DNA from: Sedimentisphaerales bacterium | Lineage (GTDB): Bacteria > Planctomycetota > Phycisphaerae > Sedimentisphaerales > SM23-30 | Direction of reading: 5' to 3' | DNA length: 64,000 nt | Assembly (NCBI GenBank): GCA_963662515.1 | Contig: OY759675.1 | Coordinates: 2,185,981 to 2,249,980, forward strand | Part shown: in pieces, positions 881 to 64,000 of the stretch | How positions within the stretch are numbered: the stretch's first letter is position 1 | Layout of the letters: each line of letters opens with the position of its first letter | Made by a program: the position numbers and the translations under genes | Notes under the pieces: model-generated | The model's database searches: none | Told to the model about the DNA's origin: nothing | What the model saw: only the letters and a program-made list of their open reading frames with translations

Positions 881-934
881 ACGCAAGAGAGAGTTGGCTG
901 TAGATAGCAGAAGCTGAATCTTGCGTTTTTTTTT
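881..934 (+). terminator. Possible intrinsic terminator after the oxidoreductase gene
   Basis: Stem ACGCAAGA (881-888) pairs with TCTTGCGT (919-926) and is followed by T9. The loop is long (30 nt), so confidence is moderate. Confidence 0.45.
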
Positions 935-1059
935 GCGCATTTTTCCCCTTTCTGAAGAGAGTAATATAACTGCTTAAACAAGAAGATGTTGTGTAACATC
1001 TTAATAGTGTATGGTGTTATAGAAAGAGTGTAAACTCTGCAAGAAAGTGAGAAAACTTT

Positions 1060-12311: not shown

Positions 12312-12382
12312 GTCTGCGGCAAAAACAATAGCGATCCTAAAATCAAGATTAACCTGATTGATATATCGAAAGATCTTATATA

Positions 12383-13849: not shown

Positions 13850-13926
13850 TAAGTATTACATTCCATTTAATTATCAATAAGAACATTACAGAATAATTCT
13901 GATTTAATATAAAGCAGGAATTTAAT

Positions 13927-38273: not shown

Positions 38274-39963
38274 AGCTTTAAGAACCGGCTGAAGGGCTTG
38301 TTGCCCTGAGTGTTTTTTGGCGGGGTTTATTGTATTGTTTTTGTATATTCTGTTTTCAGTTGAATTTTATCTGGAATAATCGGAATTTGGCTCAGGATGA
38401 GGTTTGGGAAGTCGGATTACGCAATAAGTGCAAAAGCTGAGCTAAAATCAGGGTTGAAATCGCGGCTAAAACGGAATTAGCTGCTGTTTGAGCCTTTTTC
38501 ACTCCGGCCAGCGTGATCAGCTTACGCACATTCTGCACTGCTGCTATCAGAAGGTTCTGGATCTCTGCTTTTATCAGAGTTCGCCACCGGCATCTTTTCA
38601 GACCGTGATTGTTTGCGCCATCAGCAAAACTGCCCTCGCTGCGGGCCATTCGCTTTTGTCTCAGACTGCATCTTTCTGCAGAAGTAAAACAACCATCCGC
38701 CCAACGCGAATATTCCATATCAAGCTGCTCGCTTATCTGCCGGCCGCTGCTCTTACTCTTTACACATTCACTGAAATACTGACATTGTTCACATACCTTA
38801 CGATCAGCCTCATAGGCATAGTGCTTGCCATGACTACTGCCTTTTATCCCAGTAAATTCCAGCTTCTCTCCCGCAGGACATATATAACAATTGCGTACTT
38901 CATCATAAACAAATCGGTCTTTCTGAAATTCCCGGCTCTGGCCGCTCGAATGATATCTCGCATGATCAATGCAGGGCATAGCTCCTTTATCCTGCAAATA
39001 TCTGTAATTGTCCAGCGTACCATAAGCCTTATCCGCAACTACTGTCTCAACGGCTTTATGTGTATTTGATTCGTGAGTCTCGATCGCCTGCTCTAATACT
39101 TTGCCATCATTCACATTGGCCGGTGTTGTCACGGTAGCAGTTATAATTCCATGAGCATCATCCACCACCCGATGGTCTTTATATCCCAGCGTGGTTTTGC
39201 CATTCTTTGTGGCTAAACGGGCATCCGGATCACTTTGGCTGGCCCGCTGACAAAGCTCGGCATCGGCAGGCTTAACCTCGGTTTGCGACTTGCTGTTATC
39301 TTCCACTTTGTCCTGATCATCAAGCTGCTCATAGAGCCTGTCGCTGAGCTGATGTATTTGCGGACGCAAATGGTCCTTACTGGCATCAGCCGTTATCGTG
39401 GTAGAATCAATATGAATTATCTCGCCATCAACCAGACCGGCTTCTATGCACTGATCAAGCACTATCTGAAAGAACTCGGCAAATACTTCCCGGCCCCAAC
39501 GCTTGCGGGCCTTGGACAAGACACTGTGGTCAGGGGTCTCATCATCAAGATCATAATCACAGAACCACAGCCAGTCCATACGCAAAGGCAACTGAGCGGC
39601 AAGCTGTCTTTCAGATTTGACATTCTCCAGAAATAACAGAAAGATCAACTTCATGATCACAGCCGGATCGATCGAAGTATTACCCCTGGCTCCATAAAGC
39701 CCGGCTACACGCTTACGCACAAAAGAAAAGTCTATGGCCTTTTTGATCTTACGCAAAGGATGATCCGCCGGAACCTTCTGCTCCAGAGAAATCCCATAAA
39801 ACAACTTCGGCTTAATGTCCTTGGCTTTGCCCATCATAATAAATATATCTCCTGTTATTCAGACAGATATATTTTAAACATTATCAAAACAGATACAATT
39901 AATAAGTTCATGTTTTAATAAATATTTGGGCAACACGCCCTGAAGCCCGGTACTCTTAAAGCT
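38274..39963 (-). mobile_element. IS1182-family-like insertion sequence (~1.7 kb) with imperfect ~35-bp terminal inverted repeats
   Basis: The left IR AGCTTTAAGAACCGGCTGAAGGGCTTGTTGCCC (38274-38306) matches the reverse complement of the right IR GGGCAACACGCCCTGAAGCCCGGTACTCTTAAAGCT (39928-39963). It encloses a single transposase ORF. The exact ends and target duplication are uncertain. Confidence 0.75.
38392..39837 (-). CDS. IS1182/IS5-superfamily DDE transposase
   Basis: The N-terminal DUF772-type region reads 'HPLRKIKKAIDFSF...SIDPAVIMKLIFLLFLENVKSERQL...DWLWFCDY'. The DDE region has 'IHIDSTTITADAS' and 'VVADKAYGT'. The 481-aa length fits IS1182-family enzymes. Confidence 0.88.
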   Translation of the reverse strand: MMGKAKDIKPKLFYGISLEQKVPADHPLRKIKKAIDFSFVRKRVAGLYGARGNTSIDPAVIMKLIFLLFLENVKSERQLAAQLPLRMDWLWFCDYDLDDETPDHSVLSKARKRWGREVFAEFFQIVLDQCIEAGLVDGEIIHIDSTTITADASKDHLRPQIHQLSDRLYEQLDDQDKVEDNSKSQTEVKPADAELCQRASQSDPDARLATKNGKTTLGYKDHRVVDDAHGIITATVTTPANVNDGKVLEQAIETHESNTHKAVETVVADKAYGTLDNYRYLQDKGAMPCIDHARYHSSGQSREFQKDRFVYDEVRNCYICPAGEKLEFTGIKGSSHGKHYAYEADRKVCEQCQYFSECVKSKSSGRQISEQLDMEYSRWADGCFTSAERCSLRQKRMARSEGSFADGANNHGLKRCRWRTLIKAEIQNLLIAAVQNVRKLITLAGVKKAQTAANSVLAAISTLILAQLLHLLRNPTSQTSS

Positions 39964-44233: not shown

Positions 44234-45149
44234 TTAATTCTCGTATTATACCGCGGGTGAGCAAACCATAACAGGTGTACTCACAATCAGAATAATTATC
44301 ATGCAGACTGCCGCGATAGCCGCCCTCGGGCAATGCCAGAGAATCAAGCCGGATGGCTGTCTGGCGGATCTGATCAGCACTGATACGCGAGCCAAAGCCG
44401 CAATATACCAGAGCGAACAGCCCTACTGCGGTTGATAAAAGGTCGATCTCTGCCCCGGGAGCAACCGCAATACCGCCGGCAGAGTCAAAACAACTAAGCA
44501 GCCAGTCAACGGTATGAGGGGATATTTCAGTTCCGGCTATCTTATACAGGATCATAGCCGCTGCGGTAGTGGGAACCAGCCCTACCGGCATATTTATATC
44601 ATTGACAAATGAACCATCTGGCAATGCCAGTTTTTGCAGAGAATCAACAACTCTGGCGATATTATCAATGTTTATACCAATATCCTGTAAAGCATTTACC
44701 GCCAGAAAGGCCGCATAAGAACTGCCTGATGACTTGCCGCCCTGATCAAGGGCATAACCACCATCGGCAGCGGCAAAGTCAGAAATACGAGCGGCTATTT
44801 TATCACGCAGGGCATTAAAACGGTATTCCAGAGAGAGAAAACCAAAACACCTGCCATAAGAAGCCGCTTCGACCAGATCCATATCTGCCAGTATAGGGTA
44901 TAAGCCCTGAAGATAGCCGCTCAATCGCTCATGAGGTATGGCCGCCCCCACCGCCTGCAGCAATTGCAGACCAAAGACGGTATAATACAGGTCGCTTTTG
45001 CCATTGCGATCAATAAATCCACCATCAGAGGCCATTTGAGAGATGATATATGCCGTAAGCGAACTGCCGGCCGCAAAGCCAGATCCATAACCGCCTGTCA
45101 AATATCGCAATATTGAATCTCGAATGGTCAACTTAATACTCCAGCTCAC
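44217..45149 (-). CDS. Prenyltransferase / squalene-oxidase-repeat (alpha-alpha toroid) protein
   Basis: Aromatic/Gly repeats recur about every 50 aa: 'SDGGFIDRNGKSDLYYTVFGLQLL', 'ADGGYALDQGGKSSGSSYAAFLAVNAL', 'PDGSFVND', 'SAGGIAVAPGAEIDLLSTAVGLFAL' and 'PEGGYRGS...CEYTCYGLL'. No signal peptide is present. Its 3' end overlaps the downstream gene start by 17 nt. Confidence 0.65.
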   Translation of the reverse strand: MSWSIKLTIRDSILRYLTGGYGSGFAAGSSLTAYIISQMASDGGFIDRNGKSDLYYTVFGLQLLQAVGAAIPHERLSGYLQGLYPILADMDLVEAASYGRCFGFLSLEYRFNALRDKIAARISDFAAADGGYALDQGGKSSGSSYAAFLAVNALQDIGINIDNIARVVDSLQKLALPDGSFVNDINMPVGLVPTTAAAMILYKIAGTEISPHTVDWLLSCFDSAGGIAVAPGAEIDLLSTAVGLFALVYCGFGSRISADQIRQTAIRLDSLALPEGGYRGSLHDNYSDCEYTCYGLLTRGIIRELNENTN

Positions 45150-50762: not shown

Positions 50763-53700
50763 TCAATTCCCCGGCGAAGGTAACCCGCCAGTCCAGTTTT
50801 CCGGCTCATTGGCATAGCCGTTATCAACCAGACGAATAAGCGAATAGCCACTGCCATCGGCCTCGGTTGGCCAGGGCGCATCATCGCTATAATTAACACG
50901 ATCAGCTCTGATATAAGTCCGGATATCACCATCAAGCTCACCCGGTATCTGCAATTCGACCTTTTCCCCGGAATTTGATAGCTTTCCTGCCGTCCACTGC
51001 ATATATCTTGTATAAGGCGAAAGCGGGCCATACTCCTGTACAAAAGCTGAAATATCTTTTATCAGCAGAAATTTTTCACCTCTCAATAAAGTTACATTTG
51101 TTGGCAATACCGCCATTACACCATCTTCATCGATCAGACGCCAGGGCATAATTTCAGCAGTTACCGGATCTATAAATCGCAGTTGTAATGAAGCTGCCGA
51201 TATATTTTTTAGCTCGATATATTCAGCATCTGAATCGCCAGCCGGGTTATACATTATCTCAGAAATGACTAATGGACTGGTACGGGGCCAGGAATTGGCT
51301 CGTCCGGGAGTTGCCTCCAACAATAAGATAAAATTAAATGAGCCATCACTTTTCTGATAACGGCCATATGAAACTCCTTGCGGAGCTGCATCAAAATCTT
51401 CAGATACCTGATAGCCGGTAAGCACTCCATTTACCGCCGAGCTAAGAGTAAGATCTTCACCAAACTTGCTCAGACCAAAACTTGAACCGAAACTAGTCTC
51501 ATCATATAACACAAGATAACCATCTGCAGGAACAACAGTTCCCTGTTCTATCTGATATTTGAGCAGATCAGAGCTTGAATCACTTAAATACCAACCACCA
51601 ATATTTATCGGCTTAGAGGTATTATTCTTCAACTCAATCCAATCAGGCATACCATCCTCCGGATTTGACATCACCTCATTGATCACAATACTGTTACCAG
51701 TAATAGCCTCATCCAGCTCACCTGGCGATCCGCCGGCATAAGTACTCACAGCCCAGCTTTCTTTCTTATTCCAGAGAGATAGGTCACCCTGAGTAGGGTC
51801 TGGTATATTTATAGAAAAACCCTTTCCATCAGTCAGGTCATACCAATCGTTAAACTCAAAGTTCTGTATTACCTCACCGCTGGCATCACAGAAGACTATA
51901 TATTCGCCAGCATTATTTAAAGATCCCGAATCCCATTGCATAACAATAATATCTGCAGGTAAATCAGGATATCTGCCAGCAAAAGCGACACTATCCTGAG
52001 TAAGCACAATAAACTGATCAGGAACTAGCCAGAGATCACCAAAAGTATGGTTTATACCCTTATTAAAAGATACTTTATTAAGATTAACCGCTCTTTGTCC
52101 AATATTGCGGATCTCAAGATACTCCACCCCGTTAAGCTCAGGATGATACATCAACTCAGTAATACGCAGACTTTCACTAACCGGACCAACAGAATAAAAT
52201 GCCTTAGTAACCGGCGACCATTCTACACCATCAAACACACGGGTATTGATCTCACTGCTAATATCAAGCGTTATCGGAGATGTGTATTCTATGGCATGCT
52301 CAGCAACCTGCCCAGGATCCTCAACACCAGCAACCAACACCGCAGATATAAGCATATCGCTACTGCCAGCATCATCATTCAAACCCTGTATAGCAAGAAC
52401 ATTATTGCCATTGCGTAATAGGCCGATATGCCGACTGATATCAACCTGGGTCATGGCTATTGATATACTGTCATCACGAGGCGTATCTGCCTGTGAATTA
52501 TAGTTTAGCAACACACCATCAACATTATCTCTAAACACTTCTACACCATTAAGATAGACCACACAGCCATCATCATAACGCAAATTCAATTTCAAACTGT
52601 TAATGTCAGCACTTGCAAAGTTAAATGGTATTCTGATATAGCAGGATGTTGCTTTATTATACATCTGACTCTGAAGGTTAATGCCTGCATTAATATAACT
52701 GGAATAGTTTATTGAATCTCCCGGCCGGTTCTCATAACCAACTGCCCCTGTACCATTGATCCAGCTGGTAGGGACATAATTCACAGAAGCCCAGATGTTT
52801 TCCGGAACTGAAAGATATTGACCGGGAATGATTATCGGCCCGCTTATACCCGGACCAGACCAGCCTACATTAAGATTATCGGCTCCACTACCCTCTTTAT
52901 GCAAAGCCTCGAGATAGTATGGCTTGTTATATTCAAGATAGATTTGTTCTGATTGCTGACTGCCATCCTTATACCATTCATTACTATATGACCAGGTTGT
53001 CAGATAAGCAATTTCAACAGCATTAGCCGGACTTGCATCAGAACTTAACCTGAGACTGCTATTATCATCACTGGTTATCCAGAATGTATAGTAGCCAGTA
53101 GCCGGAGGATACAATATGGCCCGAACTCTTGTTCCATAATTATCATTATGGTCAATAGCAGGCATTGCCAGCGAAGGCCATAGCTCTCTGTAGTTTGGAT
53201 TTGCTGGATAATTAACCGATGAAGTCAGGGCCGAAAGAGCATTGCCCTGTATGTTGTTATAAACCTCTGCCAGTACATTACCAGTGGGTTTCATTATATT
53301 GGCCGTAGGTACCAAAACATATTTAAAGGCATTTTCCGCTACTAATACCGTTTCTGTAACATTGATATTGTCTGGCAACTCTCGTGGGTCAGAACCATCA
53401 GTAGTATAATATACCACCCCCCTGCCATTAGGATTAGACATAGTAAGCTGGTAACCAGTTTCAACCTTACCACCATAACTGCTTAACACAGTTGATTCCA
53501 GATCAGAATACCAGCCTACCGAACGAAACTGTTCTTTCAATCTTTGTTCTCTGGGATACTTTGGCCAATCCTGCCTGGCATTTAATGTACCATTGGTTGA
53601 CAGTGTACTACTGGTGCCATTAATCCAGTTATAGGTAAATTGCAGGGCATCGAGCCAGTTGGCCTTTGTCCGTGGTACTGAGCTGGTCGAATCACCCCAA

Positions 53701-56369
53701 CGGGCAGACTCCGCTACAATAGCCATATCTAACTGACTGGCAAGACTGTTCATAGTTTCACATGCTTTTTCATGAGTAAGCAAACCGCCATTATCCAGCA
53801 AGGCATGAACTCTATCTGCAAATCTCATACGATACTCAATAACATTATTTGCCAACTGCTCATGTAGCCATTGCGGATTAAAATAGACAAAGTTTGCACC
53901 ATCTGTTGTCAGTGGTGTAACCATATTTTCCCGACATGAGTTATTCAGGCTGTAAACTGAAAATGAATGTTCACTGTCATGCTGCAACCATTTAAAACCA
54001 TCAGGATCAGTACGATTAAATATTGCAGTGAAATTATTAGTATAGGTAAAACGAGAGCCAGGCCCATCATAGTCTGCTGTAAAGTAATCTATAAGCATAA
54101 AATCAATAAGATTATCTACATCCAGTAGTCGTTTATATGACGCATTTACAGTGGCATCAGGATTCATACCTTGTAATCTGAAATATTCATTTGTATCTAA
54201 ACCATCAATTACTGCATCATACAATTCTCTATAACTACTGTTATTCCCTTCGGCGGCTAAAACATGGTAGTTATAGGCTACATCAACCTTCATTACATCA
54301 TAGTCTTCTCTGGCACCACCCATATATGATGCGGCAAAGCGTGCATCTGCCCTTTCTTCAGTCTGATACACACCCCAATACTGACCATTAATGTACAGAT
54401 GATAATAACGGCCTTTAGTATAAAGATTCCCCAGCTTGCCTTGCACTAACCTTGACCACTCATCGCGAGTAAAGGTATTCAGATAACCATTTGTGCTATC
54501 ATAATGCCAGCTGTAATTTGCAGCTGTACGCAGATCAATCTTATCAAATTCATCTGTGCCCTCATCGCCAAAAAGTGGATATTTGAGCTTTGCATCACCA
54601 TACATACTGCGGAAAAAGAAACGCAGAGCATGCTTGGGATTTGACGAACTACGACTGTAACCACCTCGCAAACGAACACCGCAATCTACCTGAAATCCAT
54701 CGCTGCCATCAGGATTAATCAATTCAAGCGAAACTGGCTTTTCATATTTGTCGCCGTTAATTCTTGTATCAGCCGATGTACAGACATATACACCATTTGT
54801 TGAATTAAATAAATTACTAAGATCAGTAACCAGTGACAATGTAGGAATGGCCAATAAGGCATCATCCATCAGATCGGCATATTGGGCATTATTAACTATG
54901 TCTGGATCCATGCCATAATCCATTTTATGATTATTAACTGCATAACTATTTGGCCACCCAGTTGGGGTCTGGCCATTGGGAGACTGTGTTATTACATCAT
55001 TAATAAAGATATATGTCTGGGTCTCAACATTACTGGGTAACCAGCCCGTTTTGAAGGCAGCCGCCCGCAGCGTTGTTGTTCTATCGATATAAATCGGATT
55101 ATCTGGATCATATATATATCCTTTACTTTCCGTTGGTGTGCTACCATTAAGTGTATAGCGTATAACAGTACCGCTTTCTTTTGTAGATAGTCGAACTGTG
55201 ATCGGTTCATTGAAAAAACCTCGCTTAAGTGAAAAGACTATATCGGCAACAGTACCAATAACCGAGTTAATATTGGCTGCCCCTGGTGTCGCCGGATAAA
55301 AATATCTCTGCTGAGTGAAATAACCGAACATACCATAAGAAATATTCTCTTGCTGAGCAGGAAATCCCCCTTCATCAGTATTAAACTCATGAATAATTTT
55401 CCCTGTTGGATCAACTATTGCCAGACACTCACCTTCAGAGCTCAATGAAAAATTAGTATGAATAAACCCTGACTCAGCAGTATCTTTACCACTGGCATAA
55501 ATAATAAGATAACCATTTGCAGCAATAGTCTGGCCGGCAGGGAAATGCCACTTGTAAATATCTTCACTATCATCAGTAAGGCTCCAGCCTGTAAGATCAA
55601 CCGTCTCCGAACTGACATTATACAATTCTATCCAGTCAACCGAGTCGCCATCTTCATCAAATACTTCCCAGCTCTCTCGCGGCAATTCAGGATCTGTACT
55701 ATTATTAACCGCAACAAATTCATTTATCAATACGGGGCCAAAAGACTCGCCCCACTCGCTGGCCATAACGCTAAAGTCCTGAATATCCACGCCATCCCCC
55801 CCTGATATATCGGCACAAGGAAGACCTGAACAGTTACTATCCAGCCATTGTACTGCCAAAATTTGCAGATCGGCAATACTTACCCTGCAATCTCCATCTA
55901 TATCGTAAGCAGGACAAGGCGATAACACAGAATCTGATATATACACAGTTATATCACTAATCATATATCCATTATATAAAGGATCATCACTTTCTACCAA
56001 AAAGCTCAGAGTCGTTGTATGCTCACCTTCTTCTATGCCATCCTGAACCGCTCTTATTGTCACTTCCTGAGCTTCGGACCAGTTAAGACGGGTGAAATAT
56101 AAAAGTATGGCATCACCAGGAAAATCACCATTGAGTTCAAGATCGGCAGTTGCAGGAATAATTTCAATACTAATATCTGCCAACGGCTGGCTATCGAGCC
56201 TGACTGATATAATATCTGCTTGCTGACCCTCTGATACATTAGTAATTGCGTCAGATTCCCAGACTGAAATACCAGCAGCAGATAGTTCCTGTGATATAAA
56301 AGCAACCCAGGCCAATACCAGACATAAATACACTTTTAAACCTGAATTATCTATATACATAATCAACAC
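50763..56369 (-). CDS. Giant secreted CotH-domain protein (1868 aa) with Calx-beta-like, dockerin-like, 4 lamin-tail (LTD), CHB_HEX_C-like and PA14 domains; paralogue A
   Basis: It has a signal peptide. The dockerin-like loops read 'YDIDGDCRVSIADLQILAVQWLD ... DISGGDGVDIQDFSVMASEWG'. The LTDs read 'VLINEFVA..WIELYNVS', 'LRITELMYHP..YLEIRNIG', 'IVINEVMSNP..WIELKNNT' and 'LVISEIMYNP..YIELKNIS'. The CotH core reads 'KHALRFFF...YPLFGDEG...GRYYHLYINGQYWGVYQTEER...KRLLDVDNLIDFML'. The PA14 segment reads 'YPPATGYYTFWITSDDNSSLRL'. Confidence 0.85.
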   Translation of the reverse strand: MLIMYIDNSGLKVYLCLVLAWVAFISQELSAAGISVWESDAITNVSEGQQADIISVRLDSQPLADISIEIIPATADLELNGDFPGDAILLYFTRLNWSEAQEVTIRAVQDGIEEGEHTTTLSFLVESDDPLYNGYMISDITVYISDSVLSPCPAYDIDGDCRVSIADLQILAVQWLDSNCSGLPCADISGGDGVDIQDFSVMASEWGESFGPVLINEFVAVNNSTDPELPRESWEVFDEDGDSVDWIELYNVSSETVDLTGWSLTDDSEDIYKWHFPAGQTIAANGYLIIYASGKDTAESGFIHTNFSLSSEGECLAIVDPTGKIIHEFNTDEGGFPAQQENISYGMFGYFTQQRYFYPATPGAANINSVIGTVADIVFSLKRGFFNEPITVRLSTKESGTVIRYTLNGSTPTESKGYIYDPDNPIYIDRTTTLRAAAFKTGWLPSNVETQTYIFINDVITQSPNGQTPTGWPNSYAVNNHKMDYGMDPDIVNNAQYADLMDDALLAIPTLSLVTDLSNLFNSTNGVYVCTSADTRINGDKYEKPVSLELINPDGSDGFQVDCGVRLRGGYSRSSSNPKHALRFFFRSMYGDAKLKYPLFGDEGTDEFDKIDLRTAANYSWHYDSTNGYLNTFTRDEWSRLVQGKLGNLYTKGRYYHLYINGQYWGVYQTEERADARFAASYMGGAREDYDVMKVDVAYNYHVLAAEGNNSSYRELYDAVIDGLDTNEYFRLQGMNPDATVNASYKRLLDVDNLIDFMLIDYFTADYDGPGSRFTYTNNFTAIFNRTDPDGFKWLQHDSEHSFSVYSLNNSCRENMVTPLTTDGANFVYFNPQWLHEQLANNVIEYRMRFADRVHALLDNGGLLTHEKACETMNSLASQLDMAIVAESARWGDSTSSVPRTKANWLDALQFTYNWINGTSSTLSTNGTLNARQDWPKYPREQRLKEQFRSVGWYSDLESTVLSSYGGKVETGYQLTMSNPNGRGVVYYTTDGSDPRELPDNINVTETVLVAENAFKYVLVPTANIMKPTGNVLAEVYNNIQGNALSALTSSVNYPANPNYRELWPSLAMPAIDHNDNYGTRVRAILYPPATGYYTFWITSDDNSSLRLSSDASPANAVEIAYLTTWSYSNEWYKDGSQQSEQIYLEYNKPYYLEALHKEGSGADNLNVGWSGPGISGPIIIPGQYLSVPENIWASVNYVPTSWINGTGAVGYENRPGDSINYSSYINAGINLQSQMYNKATSCYIRIPFNFASADINSLKLNLRYDDGCVVYLNGVEVFRDNVDGVLLNYNSQADTPRDDSISIAMTQVDISRHIGLLRNGNNVLAIQGLNDDAGSSDMLISAVLVAGVEDPGQVAEHAIEYTSPITLDISSEINTRVFDGVEWSPVTKAFYSVGPVSESLRITELMYHPELNGVEYLEIRNIGQRAVNLNKVSFNKGINHTFGDLWLVPDQFIVLTQDSVAFAGRYPDLPADIIVMQWDSGSLNNAGEYIVFCDASGEVIQNFEFNDWYDLTDGKGFSINIPDPTQGDLSLWNKKESWAVSTYAGGSPGELDEAITGNSIVINEVMSNPEDGMPDWIELKNNTSKPINIGGWYLSDSSSDLLKYQIEQGTVVPADGYLVLYDETSFGSSFGLSKFGEDLTLSSAVNGVLTGYQVSEDFDAAPQGVSYGRYQKSDGSFNFILLLEATPGRANSWPRTSPLVISEIMYNPAGDSDAEYIELKNISAASLQLRFIDPVTAEIMPWRLIDEDGVMAVLPTNVTLLRGEKFLLIKDISAFVQEYGPLSPYTRYMQWTAGKLSNSGEKVELQIPGELDGDIRTYIRADRVNYSDDAPWPTEADGSGYSLIRLVDNGYANEPENWTGGLPSPGN

Positions 56370-56426
56370 CGCTCCTCAAAATTAGCTCAATAGCACGCTC
56401 TATACTGTTTTTATTAATAACACAAA

Positions 56427-56504
56427 CTCAAGTGCCATTTATTTGCATAAGCAAATATCTGACACTTGAGCCTATATCATAATACTGTATACTTACAGTA
56501 TTAT
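56427..56504 (-). terminator. Two hairpins in the 161-bp spacer between the CotH paralogues (possible terminator of the upstream copy)
   Basis: The first hairpin is CTCAAGTG (56427-56434) with CACTTGAG (56463-56470), with a nested ATTTGC/GCAAAT. The second is ATAATACTGTA (56479-56489) with TACAGTATTAT (56494-56504). The U-tracts are weak. Confidence 0.4.
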
Positions 56505-56530
56505 ATTTGTATATCGAGTATTGGTGGTGT

Positions 56531-59500
56531 TTAATAGCCGGGCGTTGGCAGACCATAGGTCCAATTCAAATAGTCGTTACCATATACCGAATTGTTATTG
56601 CGGTGCAAAGCATCGCCACCACCATCAGCAGAAACCGGCCAAAGATCAGCATCATCATAATTGACACGATCAACCCGTATATAAAACCGCTCTACACCAT
56701 CGGTATCGCCGGGCATCTGCAATTCTATCTTCTCGCCACCATTTGACAATTTCCCCGTTTCCCACTGAACAAACTTCGTCCCTGAAGCCAGTTCGCCGTA
56801 TTCCGAGATAAAGGCTGTTAAATTCTGCAAAAGAAGCATCTTTTCGCCAGGCATAAGCACCGTATCTACCGGGAATGTCAACATTACACCACTTTCATCG
56901 ATAAAACGCCAGGGAACTATCTCAGAATTCTCTGTATCTGAAATCGAAAATGTCACTGGTAAAGCCGATATATTCTGTATTTCAATATATTCAGCATCTC
57001 CGTTCACAGCCGGATTGTACATGATTTCTGTAATCACTACAGGGCCTACCAATGGCAGAGAATTTACATTACCCGGCGTGGTTGCCTGCATGGATACAAA
57101 ATTATAGCTTCCATCACTTTTCACATATCGGCCAAAAGAAACTCCGGTAGCAGATGCACCAAAGTCCTCAGTAACCAGATATCCTGTCTGAATACCATTT
57201 ACCGCCGAACAAAGTGATACTTCTTCACCATTCTCGCTAAGGGCAAAAACACTGCCAAAATGCATGTCCTCATAAAATACTACAAATCCATAGGGAGCTA
57301 TAAAGGTACCATCCGGTATCTGGTACTTTAGTAAATCTGTACCTGAATCACTCAAATACCATCCACTGATATTGATTGCCATGTCAGTAGTATTATACAA
57401 CTCGATCCAGTCGGGAAGAGTAGAATGAGAATGAGCCAAAACCTCATTGATCACAATACTATTTGTAGCCAGAGCATTATCAATTACTCCTGGGGTGCCG
57501 CCCTTTACTGTACTTGTCGTCCAACCATTCTTCTGACCCCATAGGCCAAGATCTGTTGCTGCCGGATCCACCAGCGTAAGCGAAAAACCTTTCGCATCTG
57601 TAAGGTCATACCAATTACTATAACTAAATGATTGTATCAAACCACCTGCCGCATCAAAATATTCGATCTTTTCACCAGCATTATTCAATAAGCCGGAAGT
57701 CCATTGCAATACTACCGTATCTTCAGGAATATCAATATAGGCAATATCAAAAGCGGCCTTGTCTGACACAAGAACCACAAAACCTGAGGGTTCAACAATA
57801 GTATGTCCAAAAGTATGATCTATGCCATTTCTAAATATAACTTTATTAAGATCTATTGTCTGAGTTCCGATATTCTGTAATTCAATAAATTCCAAATTAG
57901 ATTGTACGGGATTATACATTATCTCAGTAACTCTAAGACTTTGAGCTACAGGACCAATTGCAAAAGTTGCACTTGTCAGTGCTGACCAGCTATTGCCAGT
58001 AAATACCCTGGCCTTCACTTCAGTACTATTGTTCAATACTACCGGCGAATCATATTTTTCTGCCGTAGCTGCTGGCAAACCCCTGGATATCTGACGACAA
58101 GCCAGTGAAACAGACATCAGCATATCACTACTATCTGTTTTATCATTAAGTGCCTGTATTGCCAATACATTATTCCCATTTATCAAAAGATCTTTATGAT
58201 GAGTTATATCAAACGAAGTTGAAACAATAGCATCACCATCATTACGGAAGTCCCTTGCTTCACTGTTCCAGGTCAAACCGTAAGTCTCATTTACATTGTC
58301 CCGCAAGATCTCTACACCATTGAGATAAGCTACAAAACCATCATCATATCTGATATTAAGTTTAAGCTCATCCATGTCAGATTGCTCATATATAAATGGT
58401 ATTCTAATATAACAGGTTGCATTTAGTTTGTACATCTGACTCTGAACATCAATGCCAGAACTAACAAAGTTCGAATAATTTATCTCATCTCCCGGCTTAG
58501 TCTCATAAGCAACCGGACCAGAGCCTGATATCCACCCTGAAGCATCATAAGAGGGCAGAGTCCATATATTCTCTGGGGTTTTCAAATAGGCATTTGGTAT
58601 TACAGTCGGACCGCTTATACCCGGCCCCTCCCAGCCTACATAAAGAAAATCTCCTCCAACATTATCCTTCTGCAAAGCTTCGATATAATAAGCATTACCT
58701 GCCTGCAAAGTAATTACCTGAGAGCTTTGAGAACTGAACTTGCCCCAGTTACCCGGATCACCCCAGGTATTCTGCCCGTAAATATACGCTATCTCTGTTG
58801 CGTTGGCAGGATCAGTATCAGTACTCAGAAGCAAACTGCCATTATCATCACAATTCAAATAGAATGTATATTCTCCCGTAACTGGCGGATACAGCAATCC
58901 CCTTGTTCTGGTACCATAATTATCATAACGATTGGTAGCTGGTACCGCATAATCCTGCCATACTTCAACTGTGTCTGGAGAATGAGGGTAATCAGGAGAT
59001 TGCAGTAAATAGTCCACAAAAAAGCCAGGGATATTTTTATATATTTCAGCCAAAACTCCCTGGCTATTTAATACACCTGATGGAACAAGAACCTGTTTGG
59101 GAGCATCTTCTGTGACCAGATACACAGTTTGGGTAGCACTTGCAAATACATCACGCGGATCTGCACCATCGGTAGTATAATAAATATCTCCTGTATTATC
59201 CGGATTTGTCATGGTCAGGGCATAACCATCAGAAACATACCCACCATGCTGGGAAAACTCAGGTGCATCTAATGCCGGATACCAGTTAACACTGCGGAAC
59301 TGATCCATTACTCGTACTTCTCTGGGCTGCAATGGCCATGTCTGATAATTATTCAGATTGGCATAGGTCAGGGTTGTCTTTGTACCCTGCAAAAAGTTAT
59401 AAGTAAACTGCAAAGCCTCAAGCCAGGTAGCCCGTGTATAAGGCGTAGAAGAAACCATATCACCCCAGCGTGCCGACTCGGCAATTATGGCATTATCTAA

Positions 59501-62137
59501 CTGTCCTGCTAACTGCTCCATTACCTCCTGCACACGATCAGCAGTAAGAATACCGCCATTACTAAGCCGTTCTCTGGCCTTGTCTGCAAACCTGAGACGA
59601 TATTCAATGTTCTGATCTGCCAGTTGTTGATGCAGCCAGTGCGGATTGAAATAAGTGAAATTTGCCCCTGAGGTAGTATATGGTGTCACCATATTCTCTC
59701 GCCGGCTGTCATTGGTCTCACACACTCCAAAAGTATGCTCATTATCGTGAGCAAACCACTTAAAACCATCAGGATTCACACGATTAATAACAGCATAAAA
59801 ATTATTTGTCGGTGTCCATCTTGAACCTGGACCATCAGTATTACATGAATAATACTGCAAAAGCATAAAATCAATCAGATTATCTACATCAAGTAACCGT
59901 TTATGAGTGGTACTGAGCGTACCATCTGGGTCTAGTCCCTGCAATGTATAATATTCTTCCGGGTCAATACCATTGATCACCGCATCATACAATTCCCGAT
60001 AAGCATCCAGATTTCCATCTGTTGCCACAACCTGACGGCCAACATAGTCAACCTTTATTGTGTCAAAATCCTCTTTTACGCCGGGCATATACGATGCGGC
60101 ATATCTGGGATCTATCCTTTCCTGCGTGCCATATAGTCCCCAATACTGACCATTCAGATACAAATGGTAGTACCTGCCCCTTGTGTAAGGATGTCCCATA
60201 AGACCCTGAGCTATACGACAGTATTCATCTCTGACACAGGTATTAAATATTGATATCCAGCGCGGCAGCCAGTTCCCATGCCAGGCAAAGTTGGCATTGG
60301 TACGAATATCAATTTTGTCAAACTCAGCTACACCTTCATCGCCAAAAAGTGGATATTCAAGTTTAGACTTACCATATTCGCTCCGGAAATACATATGGAA
60401 TGAATGCTTGGGATTGGTCAATTGACGACTATAACCGCCCCGCAACCTGAGTCCACAATCAATCTGGAAGCCTTCAGTACCAGCAGGATCAATCAATTCA
60501 AGCGATACTTGCTTTTCATATTTATCACCATTAATCCTGGTATCATTATCTACATGAACATATACACCATCGGTAGCATTGAAAAGCCTGTCCGGGTCAG
60601 TAACTATCGATAAAGTAGGAATATCCAGCAAAGCATCATCAATCAAGTCGGTATAGGCAGGATTATTCACTACATCAGGGTCCATACCATAATCCATAAT
60701 ATGACCATTTGCTGTCCAACTTGCCGGCCAACCGGCAGGAACCTGCCCGGCAGGAGACTGCGACTTCACATCTTCTACAAAAATATAGGTCTGAGTATCA
60801 ACATTACTCGGCTCCCAGCCAGATTTGAATGCAGCAGCACGCAATGTGGTTGTAGAATTTATATATATCGGATTAGCCGGGTCATACACCTGACCATTAT
60901 TCAGAGTCGGTGTACTGCCATTAGTAGTATAACGAATCTCTGTGCCAGACTCCTCAGTTGAAATCTCTACATAGAATGGCTCTGAGTAAAAACCTCGTTT
61001 TACTGAAAATTTAGTGTCAGAAACTGCATAAGCTACCGCATTTGCGTTTGACGCCAAAGGTGTTGCCGGCGAAAAGTACCTCTCTCTGGTAAAATAACCG
61101 AACATACCATACGAAATATTAGCCTGCTGTGGAGGAAAACCTCCATCGTATTGACTGTACTCATGCACGACCTCTCCGGCCGGGCTTACCAGTGCCAGAT
61201 ATTCACCTCCAGCACTCAGAGCAAAATTAGTATGGATATAATCACCCTGAGCTGTATCATTACCACTGGCATAGATCAGCATATATGATTCTGGTGCGAT
61301 CGTAGCATACGATGGAAACTCCCATTTTTCCAGATCATCTGCATCATCAGTCATAAACCAACCAGCCAGACTCACAGAAACAGATGAAACATTATACAAC
61401 TCGATCCAATCAACCGCCTTGCCATTTTCGTCAAAAACCTCCCAGGCCTCCTGATCTACACCCGGGTCATCAGCCTTATTGCTGGCCATAAACTCATTTA
61501 TCAAAACTGGACCAAATGACTGACCCCATTGTTCTGCCAGAACACTGAAATCAAGAATATTTACCCCATCTGAATTAATTATATCAGCACAGTCCAGACC
61601 GCTGCATCCATAGCCATTAAGCCACTGAGTAACCAATACGATCAGATCATCCATAGTTACCTGACAGTCACCATCAATATCAGCTTCTGAGCAGGGATCT
61701 ATTATATAGTCCGATATGGTAACAGTAACAGCAGGAACCACAATTGCATTGTAATTAACATCACTGCTTGACAGTTCAAAACTGATAACAGACGAATGAA
61801 CTCCCTCTTGTATGCCATCCTGAATAGCTACAACATTTATCTGACGAGGTGTTGCATAATTGGCAGGAGTAAAAGTGATAGAAACAGAATCGCCGGGAAA
61901 ATCGCCATTTAGCTCCAGGTCCAAAGATGACAGGTTTAATGTCACTTCCACATCAGCTAAAGGCTCACTGGAAAGAGATAGGAAAATATAGTCAGGAGCC
62001 AGCCCCTCAGCTACCACAGTTATGCCATCTGTCTCATCAACATTCAAACCGGCACTATAAACAAATTCTGCCATCAATATCGACATTAAAAAAAATACCA
62101 TCCCACAGGATCGTTTAAAATTACCCAATAGACTCAT
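56531..62137 (-). CDS. Giant secreted CotH-domain protein (1868 aa), paralogue B, with the same domain order as paralogue A
   Basis: It is co-linear with paralogue A along its whole length. Shared blocks include 'FGPVLINEF', 'WIELYNVSS', 'DKYEK.VSLELI.P', 'GRYYHLY.NGQYWG.Y', 'KRLLDVDNLIDFML', 'AESARWGD', 'ALQFTYN', 'CYIRIPF', 'GNNVLAIQ.LND', 'YLSDS..DLLKYQI' and 'GKLSN.GEK.ELQ.PG'. Confidence 0.85.
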   Translation of the reverse strand: MSLLGNFKRSCGMVFFLMSILMAEFVYSAGLNVDETDGITVVAEGLAPDYIFLSLSSEPLADVEVTLNLSSLDLELNGDFPGDSVSITFTPANYATPRQINVVAIQDGIQEGVHSSVISFELSSSDVNYNAIVVPAVTVTISDYIIDPCSEADIDGDCQVTMDDLIVLVTQWLNGYGCSGLDCADIINSDGVNILDFSVLAEQWGQSFGPVLINEFMASNKADDPGVDQEAWEVFDENGKAVDWIELYNVSSVSVSLAGWFMTDDADDLEKWEFPSYATIAPESYMLIYASGNDTAQGDYIHTNFALSAGGEYLALVSPAGEVVHEYSQYDGGFPPQQANISYGMFGYFTRERYFSPATPLASNANAVAYAVSDTKFSVKRGFYSEPFYVEISTEESGTEIRYTTNGSTPTLNNGQVYDPANPIYINSTTTLRAAAFKSGWEPSNVDTQTYIFVEDVKSQSPAGQVPAGWPASWTANGHIMDYGMDPDVVNNPAYTDLIDDALLDIPTLSIVTDPDRLFNATDGVYVHVDNDTRINGDKYEKQVSLELIDPAGTEGFQIDCGLRLRGGYSRQLTNPKHSFHMYFRSEYGKSKLEYPLFGDEGVAEFDKIDIRTNANFAWHGNWLPRWISIFNTCVRDEYCRIAQGLMGHPYTRGRYYHLYLNGQYWGLYGTQERIDPRYAASYMPGVKEDFDTIKVDYVGRQVVATDGNLDAYRELYDAVINGIDPEEYYTLQGLDPDGTLSTTHKRLLDVDNLIDFMLLQYYSCNTDGPGSRWTPTNNFYAVINRVNPDGFKWFAHDNEHTFGVCETNDSRRENMVTPYTTSGANFTYFNPHWLHQQLADQNIEYRLRFADKARERLSNGGILTADRVQEVMEQLAGQLDNAIIAESARWGDMVSSTPYTRATWLEALQFTYNFLQGTKTTLTYANLNNYQTWPLQPREVRVMDQFRSVNWYPALDAPEFSQHGGYVSDGYALTMTNPDNTGDIYYTTDGADPRDVFASATQTVYLVTEDAPKQVLVPSGVLNSQGVLAEIYKNIPGFFVDYLLQSPDYPHSPDTVEVWQDYAVPATNRYDNYGTRTRGLLYPPVTGEYTFYLNCDDNGSLLLSTDTDPANATEIAYIYGQNTWGDPGNWGKFSSQSSQVITLQAGNAYYIEALQKDNVGGDFLYVGWEGPGISGPTVIPNAYLKTPENIWTLPSYDASGWISGSGPVAYETKPGDEINYSNFVSSGIDVQSQMYKLNATCYIRIPFIYEQSDMDELKLNIRYDDGFVAYLNGVEILRDNVNETYGLTWNSEARDFRNDGDAIVSTSFDITHHKDLLINGNNVLAIQALNDKTDSSDMLMSVSLACRQISRGLPAATAEKYDSPVVLNNSTEVKARVFTGNSWSALTSATFAIGPVAQSLRVTEIMYNPVQSNLEFIELQNIGTQTIDLNKVIFRNGIDHTFGHTIVEPSGFVVLVSDKAAFDIAYIDIPEDTVVLQWTSGLLNNAGEKIEYFDAAGGLIQSFSYSNWYDLTDAKGFSLTLVDPAATDLGLWGQKNGWTTSTVKGGTPGVIDNALATNSIVINEVLAHSHSTLPDWIELYNTTDMAINISGWYLSDSGTDLLKYQIPDGTFIAPYGFVVFYEDMHFGSVFALSENGEEVSLCSAVNGIQTGYLVTEDFGASATGVSFGRYVKSDGSYNFVSMQATTPGNVNSLPLVGPVVITEIMYNPAVNGDAEYIEIQNISALPVTFSISDTENSEIVPWRFIDESGVMLTFPVDTVLMPGEKMLLLQNLTAFISEYGELASGTKFVQWETGKLSNGGEKIELQMPGDTDGVERFYIRVDRVNYDDADLWPVSADGGGDALHRNNNSVYGNDYLNWTYGLPTPGY

Positions 62138-62453
62138 TTTCCTCTCCTAACTCATTAAAACACAATTCAAAATTCACAATTCGCAGATTCAATTACAAGA
62201 ACATAATTCGTTTGAGATTTTAACTGAACGAGACTGTTACAGTCCCATCCATATTAGATATTCTACCAATTAATAGTCATTATTTAGCAAAAAATACAGT
62301 AAAATATCCATAAAAGAAATGATAGCCACCTAAACACCTTAAAATAATGATTTTAAGTGAGAGAATCTTAATATATCTTTTAATCTGAAAATATTATTGG
62401 ACTTAAATTCTGATAAAAAACTTGATAAAAAAAGACAAGATTAATAAAAAAAA

Positions 62454-62527
62454 TACACCCGGAGGGATTCGAACCCACGACCTACGGATTAGAAATCCGT
62501 TGCTCTATCCAACTGAGCTACGAGTGC
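62454..62527 (-). tRNA. tRNA-Arg (anticodon TCT)
   Basis: A manual cloverleaf gives acceptor GCACUCG/CGGGUGU, D-arm GCUC-AGUUGGAUA-GAGC, anticodon arm ACGGA-UUUCUAA-UCCGU (anticodon UCU), and T-arm GUGGG-UUCGAAU-CCCUC. It is 74 nt with discriminator A, and CCA is not encoded. Confidence 0.9.
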
Positions 62528-62779
62528 ATAGTAGTTTCTTGCAGCAATTCAACCTGCAAAAGACCAGTATTTATAACAAGATAGAACTTAAATGTCAACA
62601 GGAATCTGACATTGGCCACAGAAAAGTTACGACACTATTTTCTGTGACTTAAAATAAAGCAATTACAATAAATGATAGCAAATTTTAGTCTAATAATACC
62701 CATTAATGCAAAAGGACAGTCTCTACACATCAAATAGAAACTGCCCTTTTGCCTGAATATATTTTATGTTAACCCAAAA

Positions 62780-64000
62780 TCACTTTTGAGCCTGTTCTGT
62801 CAGAGACCTTATCTTGTTTGCCATTTTACCAATAAGGCCACTTTTGGCCTTAACCGCTCTAAAAGTATATCCCCATTTATACTGCTTTCCAGCCGGGTAA
62901 CAAAATTCTGGGTGAGTGCGTGCCCCCCAACTGTTGTCACCGCCAACACCCATCTGGCCCAAGTCTATATTGACAGTAATAAATTCATCTGGAAGGCCCA
63001 GCTCAAATGGGTGGCGGGTATTTTCAAGTTTTTCCTGACTCCATGGCCAGGCTGACACTTCAATAGTATCAGATGCAATAGCCATTAACCCAAAATCCTT
63101 AGCGTTGAGCCAGGCACTCCAGCGAACATCCGTTTTATTGCCATAATCCTGCACATCAACATACATAGGCTCTGGCGAGTTAATAACTTCATTATAAATA
63201 CCAATATTAGCACCGGTATTGCGATCGTTATAATTTTCCCACGGCCCCCGGCCATACCAATATGCCTGAACATAGTCAGCTGGCATTTTAAGCTGATGGC
63301 CAACTCTGGGGAGTTCAGGCAGACCAGGATCAGAATTCAGCTCATTTGATACTGAAACATTACCATTAGCATAAACATTGTATATGGTTTGCAAAGTAGC
63401 CTTGCCTTCGACCATGCTGTGATTAGTTTCAATAGAAATGGAGCCATCTTTTTGCTTCTGCCAGGTCATACTGGTAAGAATTGACTCAGGACCGGCGTTT
63501 CGCCATACCTTATGACGGTCTGGCATACCATTGCCCCTGTCATTATTAGTGGGCACACGCCAGAAATTAGGAGTAAGTTCACTGGCGATCAGAGCCTTGC
63601 CCTGACTATGATAAACTGACAACCTGCCTGTTATCCGGGAAAAGGAGATATTAAAGTCACTACCAGCAATATCTAATTTCTGGTCATTTTCATGCAAACT
63701 AAGAGCTCCACTCTTTTCAGCCGTAACAACAGAAGGTCTGTCCAGGTTGGTCAGGGCTATCTGCTGCCACGCAATTACATGTCCTTTCCGTGCCCATGAC
63801 TGATCATCATTAAGTACAAAATTAACATTTAGCAAATACTCACCCGCTCCGCCAGATCTCTTCATACTATACGGAATAACTATGTTCTCGGTCTGGCCGG
63901 CTGGCACTTCTGGACAATTCAGAGTTCCCTTATCTATTTCGATACCATTTTCCAGTAATTGCCATTGAATGCTAATACTGGCCAGAGCAATATAAGTGAA
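62780..64000 (-). CDS. Beta-galactosidase (GH2), C-terminal portion; the 5' end lies outside the window
   Basis: The frame is open to base 64000, and the 'M' at 63907 in the track is an internal GTG. It has LacZ domain-5 motifs 'PNFWRVPTNNDRGNG', 'WYGRGPWENYNDR', 'QDYGNKTDVRW' and 'GVGGDNSWG'. Confidence 0.85.
   Translation of the reverse strand, partial: FTYIALASISIQWQLLENGIEIDKGTLNCPEVPAGQTENIVIPYSMKRSGGAGEYLLNVNFVLNDDQSWARKGHVIAWQQIALTNLDRPSVVTAEKSGALSLHENDQKLDIAGSDFNISFSRITGRLSVYHSQGKALIASELTPNFWRVPTNNDRGNGMPDRHKVWRNAGPESILTSMTWQKQKDGSISIETNHSMVEGKATLQTIYNVYANGNVSVSNELNSDPGLPELPRVGHQLKMPADYVQAYWYGRGPWENYNDRNTGANIGIYNEVINSPEPMYVDVQDYGNKTDVRWSAWLNAKDFGLMAIASDTIEVSAWPWSQEKLENTRHPFELGLPDEFITVNIDLGQMGVGGDNSWGARTHPEFCYPAGKQYKWGYTFRAVKAKSGLIGKMANKIRSLTEQAQK

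Follow-up and report, generated by a model that had tools for sequence, protein, structure and literature searches.

The window, a 64,000-nucleotide stretch of a Sedimentisphaerales (Planctomycetota) genome, harbors two head-to-tail open reading frames on the minus strand, with gene A as the upstream and gene B as the downstream copy (Table 1). The first-pass annotation had described this pair and its 161-bp gap, and the coordinates confirm both, with the addition of the strand, which had been left unstated. The GTG start of gene B lies 2 nt after the ribosome-binding site GAGGAG. Alternative starts are a TTG at 56366, with a spacing of 5 nt (1867 aa), and an ATG at 56360 (1865 aa), the latter being collinear with the signal peptide of A. 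Judged from the sequence, TTG or ATG is a more plausible true start than the GTG.

The RNA of the spacer between the genes is predicted to fold with a minimum free energy of -51.8 kcal/mol (z -6.3), and its hairpins may act as a transcript-end or stabilizing structure. A consensus scan gave no intrinsic terminator in the spacer, and the regional counts stayed at the shuffle level, strong as the hairpins nonetheless are. The placement of the tRNA-Arg gene next to A is retained in the sister MAG. An island integrated at this tRNA was considered and rejected, as the 3' end of the tRNA is not repeated elsewhere in the window, leaving no sign of integration; GC3 is like that of other genes, and synteny is found in the sister MAG. 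The surroundings are of the polysaccharide-degrader type, with GH78, GH127, GH2 and NPCBM genes.

Table 1. Coordinates of the gene pair, its predicted modules and candidate active-site residues (positions in the window)
Feature	Position (gene A for paired features)	Position in gene B	Strand	Residues (aa)	Remarks
Gene A (upstream copy)	56531..62137		-		1868 aa + stop; ATG start 6 nt after AGGAG
Gene B (downstream copy)		50763..56369	-		1868 aa solely from GTG at 56369
A/B spacer	56370..56530		-		161 nt; two strong hairpins, then ribosome-binding site of B
tRNA-Arg(TCT)	62453..62528		-		directly upstream of A
Predicted Sec signal peptide	62054..62137	about 56286-56360	-		A: K/R n-region, hydrophobic core, VYS/AG; B: LSA/AG; both from hydropathy and alignment
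N-terminal beta-rich module, weakly Calx-beta-like	61694..62053	55926-56285	-	~29-148	
Dockerin-like double Ca-loop module	61517..61693	55749-55925	-	~149-207	4 conserved Cys
LTD1	61052..61516	55284-55748	-	~208-362	Pfam
CHB_HEX_C_1 / Fn3_assoc Ig-like module	60773..61006	55005-55238	-	~378-455	Pfam
CotH kinase-fold core	59258..60772	53490-55004	-	~456-960	Pfam and model
Candidate active-site residues	K577 (60407-60409), D768 (59834-59836), N779, D798 (59744-59746), E800	K579, D768, N779, D798, E800	-		
Second CHB_HEX_C-like module	59078..59257	53310-53489	-	~961-1020	two CHB_HEX_C_1 stretches
PA14 domain	58583..59077	52815-53309	-	~1021-1185	Pfam
Galactose-binding-domain-like jelly roll	58088..58582	52320-52814	-	~1186-1350	RYDDG motif
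Three C-terminal LTDs	56534..57961	50766-52193	-	~1393-1550, ~1558-1689, ~1697-1868	

Domain Architecture

Pfam returns the same set for A and B: four lamin tail domains (LTD), two CHB_HEX_C_1/Fn3_assoc modules, CotH and PA14. The common domain order proposed in the first-pass annotation largely holds, with the exception of its Calx-beta element, which appears below threshold only. Calx-beta (PF03160) is found in three of ten orthologous N-terminal segments with a best E of 0.049, but A itself gives no match at E<=5. A similar split applies to the dockerin-like loops. A profile of the same ten segments matches the dockerin structure 2y3n_B at E 3.7e-4, followed by about ten further dockerins at E 0.04-1, and Pfam Dockerin_1 (PF00404) matches six of the ten segments (best E 6.2e-5), although A alone is without a Dockerin_1 match at E<=5. 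No cohesin was detected among the neighboring genes scanned within the 64-kb window.

The lamin tail assignment (PF00932) comprises four stretches per protein, starting at residues ~211, 1401, 1561 and 1700 and with totals of 177.5 and 183.9 bits (cut-off 34.3), and with a short Fn3_assoc-like piece preceding the three C-terminal copies. PA14 (PF07691) is marginal, at 27.2 bits in A and 26.1 bits in B against a cut-off of 24. Sequence searches of Pfam and the PDB gave no match for the segment that follows PA14. Modeled with AF2 (A residues 1183-1385, pLDDT 75), it matches the structures of GH78 rhamnosidases and of GH86 and GH2 enzymes, with E between 1.6e-4 and 1e-3 and a probability of 1.0. 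Its earlier description as jelly-roll-like is thus borne out by a predicted galactose-binding-domain-like sandwich of the kind present in GH78 and GH2 enzymes. NCBIfam contains no family matching A or B.

The CotH Core and Its Candidate Active Site

The CotH profile (PF08757) has a cut-off of 23.8 bits; A reaches 67.5 bits and B 73.7 bits, over positions 1-309/316 of the 322 in the profile. The AF2 model of A residues 450-1000 (pLDDT 72, pTM 0.81) matches the Bacillus cereus CotH kinase (5jd9/5jda) with a Foldseek E of 3.3e-10, a probability of 1.00 and a TM(target) of 0.67, all subsequent matches lying at E>0.1. The model represents the A core, to which the B core is 61% identical. At the level of sequence, the A core and 5JD9 are only ~12% identical; searches for solved CotH structures by sequence alone, with either the A core or a 20-sequence profile, gave no link, and an intermediate step through a CotH from a Deinococcus plasmid was equally unsuccessful.

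Residues were mapped onto the 5JD9 chain sequence taken from the PDB. In a weak hhalign alignment of the family profile with 5JD9 (E 0.11), EKKSY lines up with A through its second Lys (opposite K577), and NFDG through its Asp (opposite D768). The HDxE motif at 797-800, part of HD(N/S)EH, was mapped manually onto WDYD of 5JD9, and the placement of N779 and D798 is likewise manual. The two Asp residues concerned lie 23 residues apart in 5JD9, as do D228 and D251 in B. subtilis CotH, mutation of which inactivates the kinase (PMC7821199). In an alignment of 110 sequences (108 homologues besides A and B, with core identity as low as 32%), K577, D768, N779 and E800 are invariant (110/110), and D798 is present in 109. 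Both copies therefore appear to retain counterparts of the Lys at the ATP site, of the catalytic Asp, of the Asn and of the metal-binding Asp/Glu. The comparison with Bacillus CotH suggested in the first-pass annotation leaves all candidate residues intact in A and B, and on the basis of sequence and model the kinase core looks intact in both.

What A and B have in common with Bacillus CotH (B. cereus 5JD9/5JDA and B. subtilis) is PF08757, the fold as far as the A model represents it and, putatively, the Lys of the ATP site together with the Asp residues that in B. subtilis are D228 (catalytic) and D251 (metal-binding). In other respects the proteins differ. Bacillus CotH is a single-domain protein of ~360 aa from a sporulating Firmicute, whereas the A/B core of ~500 aa contains insertions and is one part of a predicted secreted protein of ~1868 aa that has a further 11-12 modules and is encoded by a non-sporulating planctomycete. 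The Bacillus substrates CotB and CotG, with their Ser/Lys/Arg-rich repeats, have no evident counterpart beside A and B. We rejected an assignment of A and B as orthologues of the Bacillus spore-coat type on account of their size (1865-1868 aa), multidomain build, 12% identity and relatives in Sedimentisphaerales and Phycisphaerae.

A resemblance in setting is offered by the cellulosomal proteins of Clostridium thermocellum, which include CseP/Cthe_0044 (CotH) and Cthe_0239, with the order LTD, LTD, Fn3, CotH (PMC6083626). That organism, too, degrades polysaccharides, and its extracellular proteins unite CotH with LTDs and a dockerin-type module, the counterpart of which in A and B would be the dockerin-like loops. 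A and B come from another phylum, however, and differ in module order, with an N-terminal, Cys-rich dockerin-like module, and in possessing many more modules (PA14, the galactose-binding-like jelly roll and four LTDs).

Age of the Duplication and Selection

Between A and B, identity is 55% at the protein and 60% at the nucleotide level; the longest in-register identical run is 22 nt, in agreement with the earlier remark that the copies are clearly diverged and free of long identical runs. Their synonymous sites are saturated (pS 0.73). Recent gene conversion was considered and rejected, as identity over 150 nt peaks at 73% and stays level at third positions (0.43 +/- 0.07). In a neighbor-joining tree, A groups with the single-copy orthologue P0002 from another genome to the exclusion of B (97% bootstrap). 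B evolves slightly faster and lies slightly further from the outgroups than A, and its basal position could be exaggerated by long-branch attraction in this neighbor-joining tree. Saturation, the lack of conversion tracts and the grouping of A with P0002 all point to an old duplication rather than a recent copy, as had been proposed from the sequence at first sight.

Orthologues of A are P0001 (88% identity) and P0002 (60-61%). The closest relative of B is a fragment from the sister MAG (L007, 86%), all others showing at most 55% identity. The sister MAG possesses orthologues of both genes, against which A has a dN/dS of 0.088 over 1671 codons, and B one of 0.101 over 838 codons. These comparisons indicate that A and B are ancient tandem paralogues, both maintained under strong purifying selection, and that both copies have probably been kept since before a deep split, roughly at genus level or older. 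Decay or silencing of one copy, raised in the first-pass annotation, is scarcely credible and already contradicted at the level of sequence: B lacks a close database relative save the one MAG fragment and has diverged slightly more from the outgroups, but its frame is intact over 5.6 kb behind a ribosome-binding site of its own, its dN/dS against the orthologue is as low as 0.10, and the conserved core residues, including the candidate catalytic ones, are all kept in it as in A.

Divergence between the copies is distributed unevenly. Identity is lowest in the N-terminal module (36%), and PA14 (50%) also ranks with the more variable segments, compared with 61% in the CotH core, bearing out the earlier choice of the first two as candidates for divergence. 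The CotH core also displays the lowest dN/dS of all modules (0.06).

Length of the Two Proteins

Under a mechanical ORF rule, both frames encode 1868 aa, which the first-pass annotation had read as strict length conservation. The equality itself stands under that rule, whereas B is more plausibly 1867 or 1865 aa long. Aligned from the GTG start of B, the two proteins are separated by 12 short indels, with 11 residues in each direction and a net difference of zero; the last ~580 residues are free of indels. Relatives of the same architecture measure 1870, 1876, 1878, 1879 and 1882 aa, and those with an extra Laminin_G_3 module 1920-2089 aa. With relatives of the same architecture spanning 1870-1882 aa, a chance of about 1 in 10 suffices for two equal lengths.

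Selection for equal length, for example through matched-length spacers or an in-register heterodimer, would fit the 1868 codons and the indel-free C-terminal part. We regard it as very improbable, given that it requires the GTG start 2 nt from the ribosome-binding site and that twelve indels offset one another by chance, and given the variation in length among relatives of the same architecture. Taken together, the sequence comparisons indicate that the identical length is a coincidence, without biological meaning, and that what is conserved across the subfamily is the domain architecture with its short loops, not exact length.

Family and Gene Neighborhoods

A and B are members of a large, already annotated and functionally uncharacterized family. 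Database matches at E<=1e-3 number 1547 and 1124, most of them named "lamin tail domain-containing protein", and the range of the family covers Sedimentisphaerales, Phycisphaerae, Planctomycetota and Verrucomicrobiota. With more than 1500 relatives, the statement that secreted CotH proteins with LTDs are common in annotations and uncharacterized holds true, and our literature search turned up no work on the function of LTD/CotH proteins from planctomycetes. Relatives such as P0002 and P0007-P0010 share the domain order and 40-60% full-length identity with A and B. In this lineage the gene forms an ancient tandem arrangement; in the complete genomes or large contigs examined, by contrast, each relative stands alone, and the loci are unrelated. 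A fixed pair is therefore not a property of the family, even if the sister MAG has both copies.

Comparison of six loci revealed no conserved gene neighborhood across the family, and hence no hint of a partner or substrate. A different picture emerges for the sister clade of A and B (P0003 and P0005, 55-57% identity). At its loci L005 and L006, and at these two only, a same-strand run comprises a VTC (polyphosphate-polymerase domain) gene, a DUF4956 gene, two further genes and, in last place, the CotH/LTD gene. Searches of the 64-kb window by tblastn with VTC, DUF4956 and the two further L005 genes gave a best E of 0.64, and the 8-10 kb around each of six other family members are likewise free of VTC and DUF4956 genes.

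Proposed Function

The most likely reading of the sequence and model data is that A and B are surface-anchored extracellular phosphotransferases with different targets. A Sec signal peptide would export each protein, and the dockerin-like Ca-binding module would probably anchor it to the surface or to a scaffold partner. The CotH-type core, with its Fam20C-like, atypical protein-kinase fold, would be catalytically competent and displayed among ligand-binding beta-sandwich modules, namely PA14, the galactose-binding-like jelly roll, four LTDs and Ig-like spacers. These modules may hold the enzyme on a polymeric extracellular target, such as a glycan-rich surface or a matrix protein, which the core would phosphorylate. 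As divergence between A and B is greatest in the N-terminal module, PA14 and the linker/LTD surfaces, their targets probably differ, pointing at subfunctionalization in which one catalytic core serves different targets. We hold this explanation as a whole, from ancient tandem paralogy through export and anchoring to CotH phosphotransferase activity on different targets, with moderate confidence. A point against an ATP-dependent kinase is that the supply of ATP outside the cell is left unexplained.

Next in rank, although we judge it considerably less probable, is the alternative that the CotH core acts on a glycan or other non-protein polymer, or uses or handles polyphosphate instead of ATP, with the PA14, galactose-binding-like and LTD modules binding that polymer. 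Among the Fam20 and POMK kinases, which are related to CotH, some members are glycan kinases. Carbohydrate-type binding modules adjoin the core, the genomic context is that of a polysaccharide degrader, and the sister-clade gene closes the VTC-DUF4956 run at L005 and L006. A trio of VTC, a 4-TM protein and a secreted CotH also occurs in the pel locus of Streptococcus intermedius (SIR_1592-1594), where the CotH and 4-TM genes affect Pel-dependent aggregation (PMC12345266). The link of A and B to this trio runs, however, through homology to the sister clade of P0003 and P0005 only, and the missing VTC and DUF4956 homologues in the window and around the six other members speak against this alternative. 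In addition, the biochemically characterized CotH enzymes are exclusively Ser/Thr protein kinases using ATP (PMC7821199).

Non-enzymatic surface adhesins or scaffolds, with a CotH fold that serves for binding only, as proposed for the CotH invasins of Mucorales, are an unlikely alternative of still lower rank. About 70% of each protein consists of binding-type beta-sandwich domains, and fungal CotH proteins have been described as host-cell ligands (PMC9973265). Yet the Lys, Asp, Asn, Asp and Glu residues are invariant or nearly so throughout the 110-sequence alignment, and the core evolves under the tightest constraint of all modules. Together, these features form the pattern of an active site rather than of a binding surface, which favors an enzymatic core.

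More speculatively, and with little probability in our estimate, the LTD/CotH giants could be the catalytic, outward-facing part of a system for phosphorylation outside the cell, with exported polyphosphate as the phosphate donor. The VTC-domain polymerase and the DUF4956 membrane protein, encoded upstream in the sister clade, would make polyphosphate and thread it out of the cell, and A and B would be two target-specific versions acting on different glycan or matrix polymers of the planctomycete surface. If true, such a donor would account for a kinase working where ATP is absent.

Significance

The equal length that drew attention to A and B carries no information. Secreted CotH-fold proteins, on the other hand, abound in Planctomycetota and Verrucomicrobiota as well as in clostridial cellulosomes and streptococcal biofilm loci, while a substrate or role is established for Bacillus spores only. 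With a shared, conserved active site and diverged putative targeting modules, A and B represent a natural experiment, and they are reasonable candidates for biochemistry on what extracellular CotH enzymes phosphorylate.

Domain Organization and the CotH Core

The domain list of the first-pass annotation for the tandem giant proteins A (upstream copy) and B (downstream copy) is essentially right; its weakest item is Calx-beta, which is matched in the N-terminal module by 3 of 10 orthologues, all below threshold. Judged by hydropathy and alignment, each protein begins with what resembles a Sec signal peptide: an n-region that is basic, then a hydrophobic core, then small residues ahead of AG.

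Location of the features in the window, evidence for the modules and A/B protein identity per module (nt, window positions; aa, A numbering; LTD, lamin tail domain)
Feature	Position	Strand	Evidence or content	A/B identity
Gene A (upstream copy)	nt 56531-62137	minus	long ORF, 1868 codons by mechanical rule	
Gene B (downstream copy)	nt 50763-56369	minus	long ORF, 1868 codons by mechanical rule	
A/B spacer	nt 56370-56530	minus	161 nt	
N-terminal module	aa ~29-148		sub-threshold Calx-beta only	36%
Dockerin-like module	aa ~149-207; nt 61517-61693 (A), 55749-55925 (B)	minus	profile and orthologue matches	58%
LTD1	aa from ~211		Pfam	59%
CHB1 (CHB_HEX_C_1/Fn3_assoc)	aa ~378-455		Pfam	68%
CotH core	aa ~563-917		Pfam	61%
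CHB2 (CHB_HEX_C_1/Fn3_assoc)	aa ~961-1020		Pfam	53%
PA14	aa ~1026-1181		Pfam, marginal	50%
Jelly roll (galactose-binding-domain-like)	aa ~1186-1350		fold match only	53%
Linker	aa 1351-1395			40%
LTD2	aa from ~1401		Pfam	51%
LTD3	aa from ~1561		Pfam	55%
LTD4	aa from ~1700		Pfam	53%
PilM/FtsA-like gene and two ORFs	nt 10002-15639	plus		
IS-type transposase	nt 38392-39837	minus	DDE_Tnp_1_6, DUF772	
Toroid and NPCBM/PKD genes	nt 41603-45149	minus		
GH2 beta-galactosidase, C-terminal part	nt 62780-64000	minus	LacZ_4, Bgal_small_N	

A 10-sequence profile of the dockerin-like segment matches the cellulosomal dockerin 2y3n_B (E 3.7e-4) and, more weakly, many other dockerins. Pfam Dockerin_1 is matched by 6 of the 10 orthologous segments (best E 6.2e-5), the segment of A itself giving no Dockerin_1 match even at E <= 5. 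Four Cys of this module (C149, C158, C178 and C183 in A) are invariant or near-invariant among orthologues, which suggests two disulfides, unusual in comparison with classical dockerins. For the jelly-roll segment no sequence match was found in Pfam or PDB; its AF2 model (pLDDT 75) resembles galactose-binding-like accessory domains of GH78 rhamnosidases, GH86 and GH2 (E ~1e-4, probability 1.0).

The AF2 model of the A core (aa 450-1000; pLDDT 72, pTM 0.81) has as its only significant PDB matches the B. cereus CotH kinase entries 5jd9 and 5jda (E 3e-10, probability 1.0, TM 0.67 on the target, 12% identity); sequence-only searches gave no link between this core and solved CotH structures. Alignment of the 5JD9 chain sequence to a 20-sequence family profile scored weakly (E 0.11) and was collinear, pairing the A family motif RLRGGYSRQLTNPKHSFHMYF (key residue K577) with VYRGAHIREFEKKSYHVMF, YHLYLNGQYWGLY (no key residue) with VFIKINGQIQGVY, and LLDVDNLIDFMLLQYYSCNTDGPG (D768) with a 24-residue 5JD9 segment. 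By manual alignment, NNFY...FKWFAHDNEHTFG (N779, D798, E800) corresponds to HNYA...FEVIPWDYDATWG. The two Asp of the Bacillus 5JD9 chain lie 23 residues apart, the spacing of D228 and D251 of B. subtilis, substitution of which inactivates the CotH kinase (PMC7821199).

Across 110 aligned sequences (A, B and 108 homologues, with core identity as low as 32%), no substitution occurs at K577, H658, Y665, W666, E673, D768, N779 or E800, while 109 keep D798. B has all of these residues (its Lys is K579; D768, N779, D798 and E800 carry the same numbers), and no disrupted catalytic motif occurs in either copy.

Divergence and Age of the Two Copies

The N-terminal module and PA14, which had been proposed as candidates for specificity, are indeed among the most diverged modules when compared with the CotH core. 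The catalytic centre is conserved and the peripheral binding modules have diverged, a pattern that would fit two enzymes with shared chemistry and different targets.

BLASTP aligns A and B over their full length at 55% identity (72% positives). Their DNA is 60% identical, with a longest in-register identical run of 22 nt, in agreement with the earlier reading that long identical runs are lacking, and a best 150-nt window of at most 73%. Third-position identity is flat, and hence nothing points to gene conversion. Between A and B, pS is saturated (0.73) at a dN of 0.38, so that dN/dS is not meaningful for this pair.

The Sedimentisphaerales MAG GCA_016932145.1 holds an orthologue of A (88% protein and 85% DNA identity, gap-free over 1671 aa), the upstream sequence of which matches the window up to the tRNA-Arg, and, on a separate short contig, an orthologue of B (86% and 83%, gap-free over 838 aa). 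Against these orthologues, dN/dS is 0.088 for A (dS 0.70) and 0.101 for B (dS 0.82), the CotH core being the most constrained module (0.06). The two contigs of this MAG, JAFGDI010000318.1 (5342 nt) and JAFGDI010000035.1 (2517 nt), show the assembly broken inside both paralogues; tandem CotH/LTD pairs may be under-counted in MAGs owing to such breaks.

In a tree built by neighbour-joining only (1586 gap-free columns, 200 bootstraps), in which B evolves slightly faster, A groups with P0002, a 1870-aa orthologue encoded by a single gene on a 4.6-Mb contig (97% bootstrap), and A, B and P0002 group together at 100%. The duplication is therefore older than the divergence of the P0002 lineage, and that lineage appears from this grouping to have retained only the A type. 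Saturation of pS, the grouping of A with P0002 and low dN/dS against the orthologues together give good support to the first-pass view of an old duplication with both copies kept. Other relatives, in complete genomes or on long contigs, have single genes at unrelated loci, indicating that the pair is old but lineage-specific and that copy number is not fixed in the family.

Start Codons and Length

The two equal-length head-to-tail ORFs are present as first described, but their equality needs the GTG start of B. The start codon of A is an ATG 6 nt past AGGAG; B reaches 1868 aa only from a GTG 2 nt past GAGGAG. A TTG with 5-nt spacing would yield 1867 aa and an ATG 1865 aa, the latter product being collinear with the A signal peptide, and these two are better candidates than GTG. 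In the global alignment, 12 indels, each 1-5 residues long, add up to 11 residues either way, and the lengths are equal only because these cancel. Relatives with the same architecture measure 1870, 1876, 1878, 1879 and 1882 aa, and those with an extra N-terminal Laminin_G_3 module 1920-2089 aa. The identical lengths were once read as a sign of strict constraint, but they arise artefactually from the choice of start codon and from indels that cancel. The subfamily retains a compact architecture in which loops are short; that A and B match exactly in length is roughly a 1-in-10 coincidence.

Genomic Surroundings

Folding of the A/B spacer RNA gives two hairpins that are long and strong, first a stem of 11 bp and then one of ~26 bp with an internal loop (MFE -51.8 kcal/mol, z -6.3 versus shuffles). 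A consensus scan called no intrinsic terminator there; the hairpins could serve to end the A transcript or to stabilise it.

The window is ordinary chromosome of a polysaccharide degrader, with glycan genes (GH78 rhamnosidase, GH127, GH2, NPCBM/PKD and Laminin_G proteins) amid housekeeping genes, tRNA-Arg(TCT) upstream of A, transketolase downstream of B and no island signature around the pair in the window. One IS-type DDE transposase lies between a GGDEF/CHASE4 gene and glycan-related genes. The frame of the GH2 beta-galactosidase is open to the window edge, so that this gene continues beyond that edge rather than being a fragment. Downstream of GH127, the gene for a 310-aa prenyltransferase-like alpha-alpha toroid protein has a 17-nt overlap with the start of that for an 876-aa NPCBM/PKD protein, and the two may form a small glycan-processing operon. 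Elsewhere, the gene for a PilM/FtsA-like protein of 769 aa precedes two large ORFs (488 and 570 aa) that match no Pfam family and may encode divergent pilus or secretion assembly components.

Proposed Function

In the best-supported reading, A and B are both exported CotH-type phosphotransferases, probably anchored to a surface or scaffold. The analysis shows the fold, the modules, the conserved active site and the selection; we infer export, anchoring, activity and substrate. The sandwich modules would hold both proteins on a polymeric target. No functional study of this LTD/CotH subfamily was found in the literature searched, and the nearest analogues are the functionally uncharacterised cellulosomal CotH proteins (PMC6083626) and the secreted CotH of the S. 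intermedius pel locus, which there forms a trio with a VTC (polyphosphate-polymerase domain) protein and a 4-TM protein (PMC12345266).

In a sister clade (P0003 and P0005, 55-57% identical), the CotH/LTD gene is the last of a same-strand run (L005 5375-16270; L006 1017-11101) that comprises VTC (PF09359), DUF4956, a 380-aa protein with faint HlyD-like matches, a ~530-560-aa protein with a faint OEP match, and CotH/LTD. Its VTC-DUF4956-CotH/LTD arrangement resembles the S. intermedius trio. VTC/DUF4956-type cluster genes are absent from the window and from six other family loci, and a link between secreted CotH enzymes and polyphosphate is therefore a hypothesis only. A and B add new members to a large family that is annotated but functionally uncharacterised; the observation itself is real.
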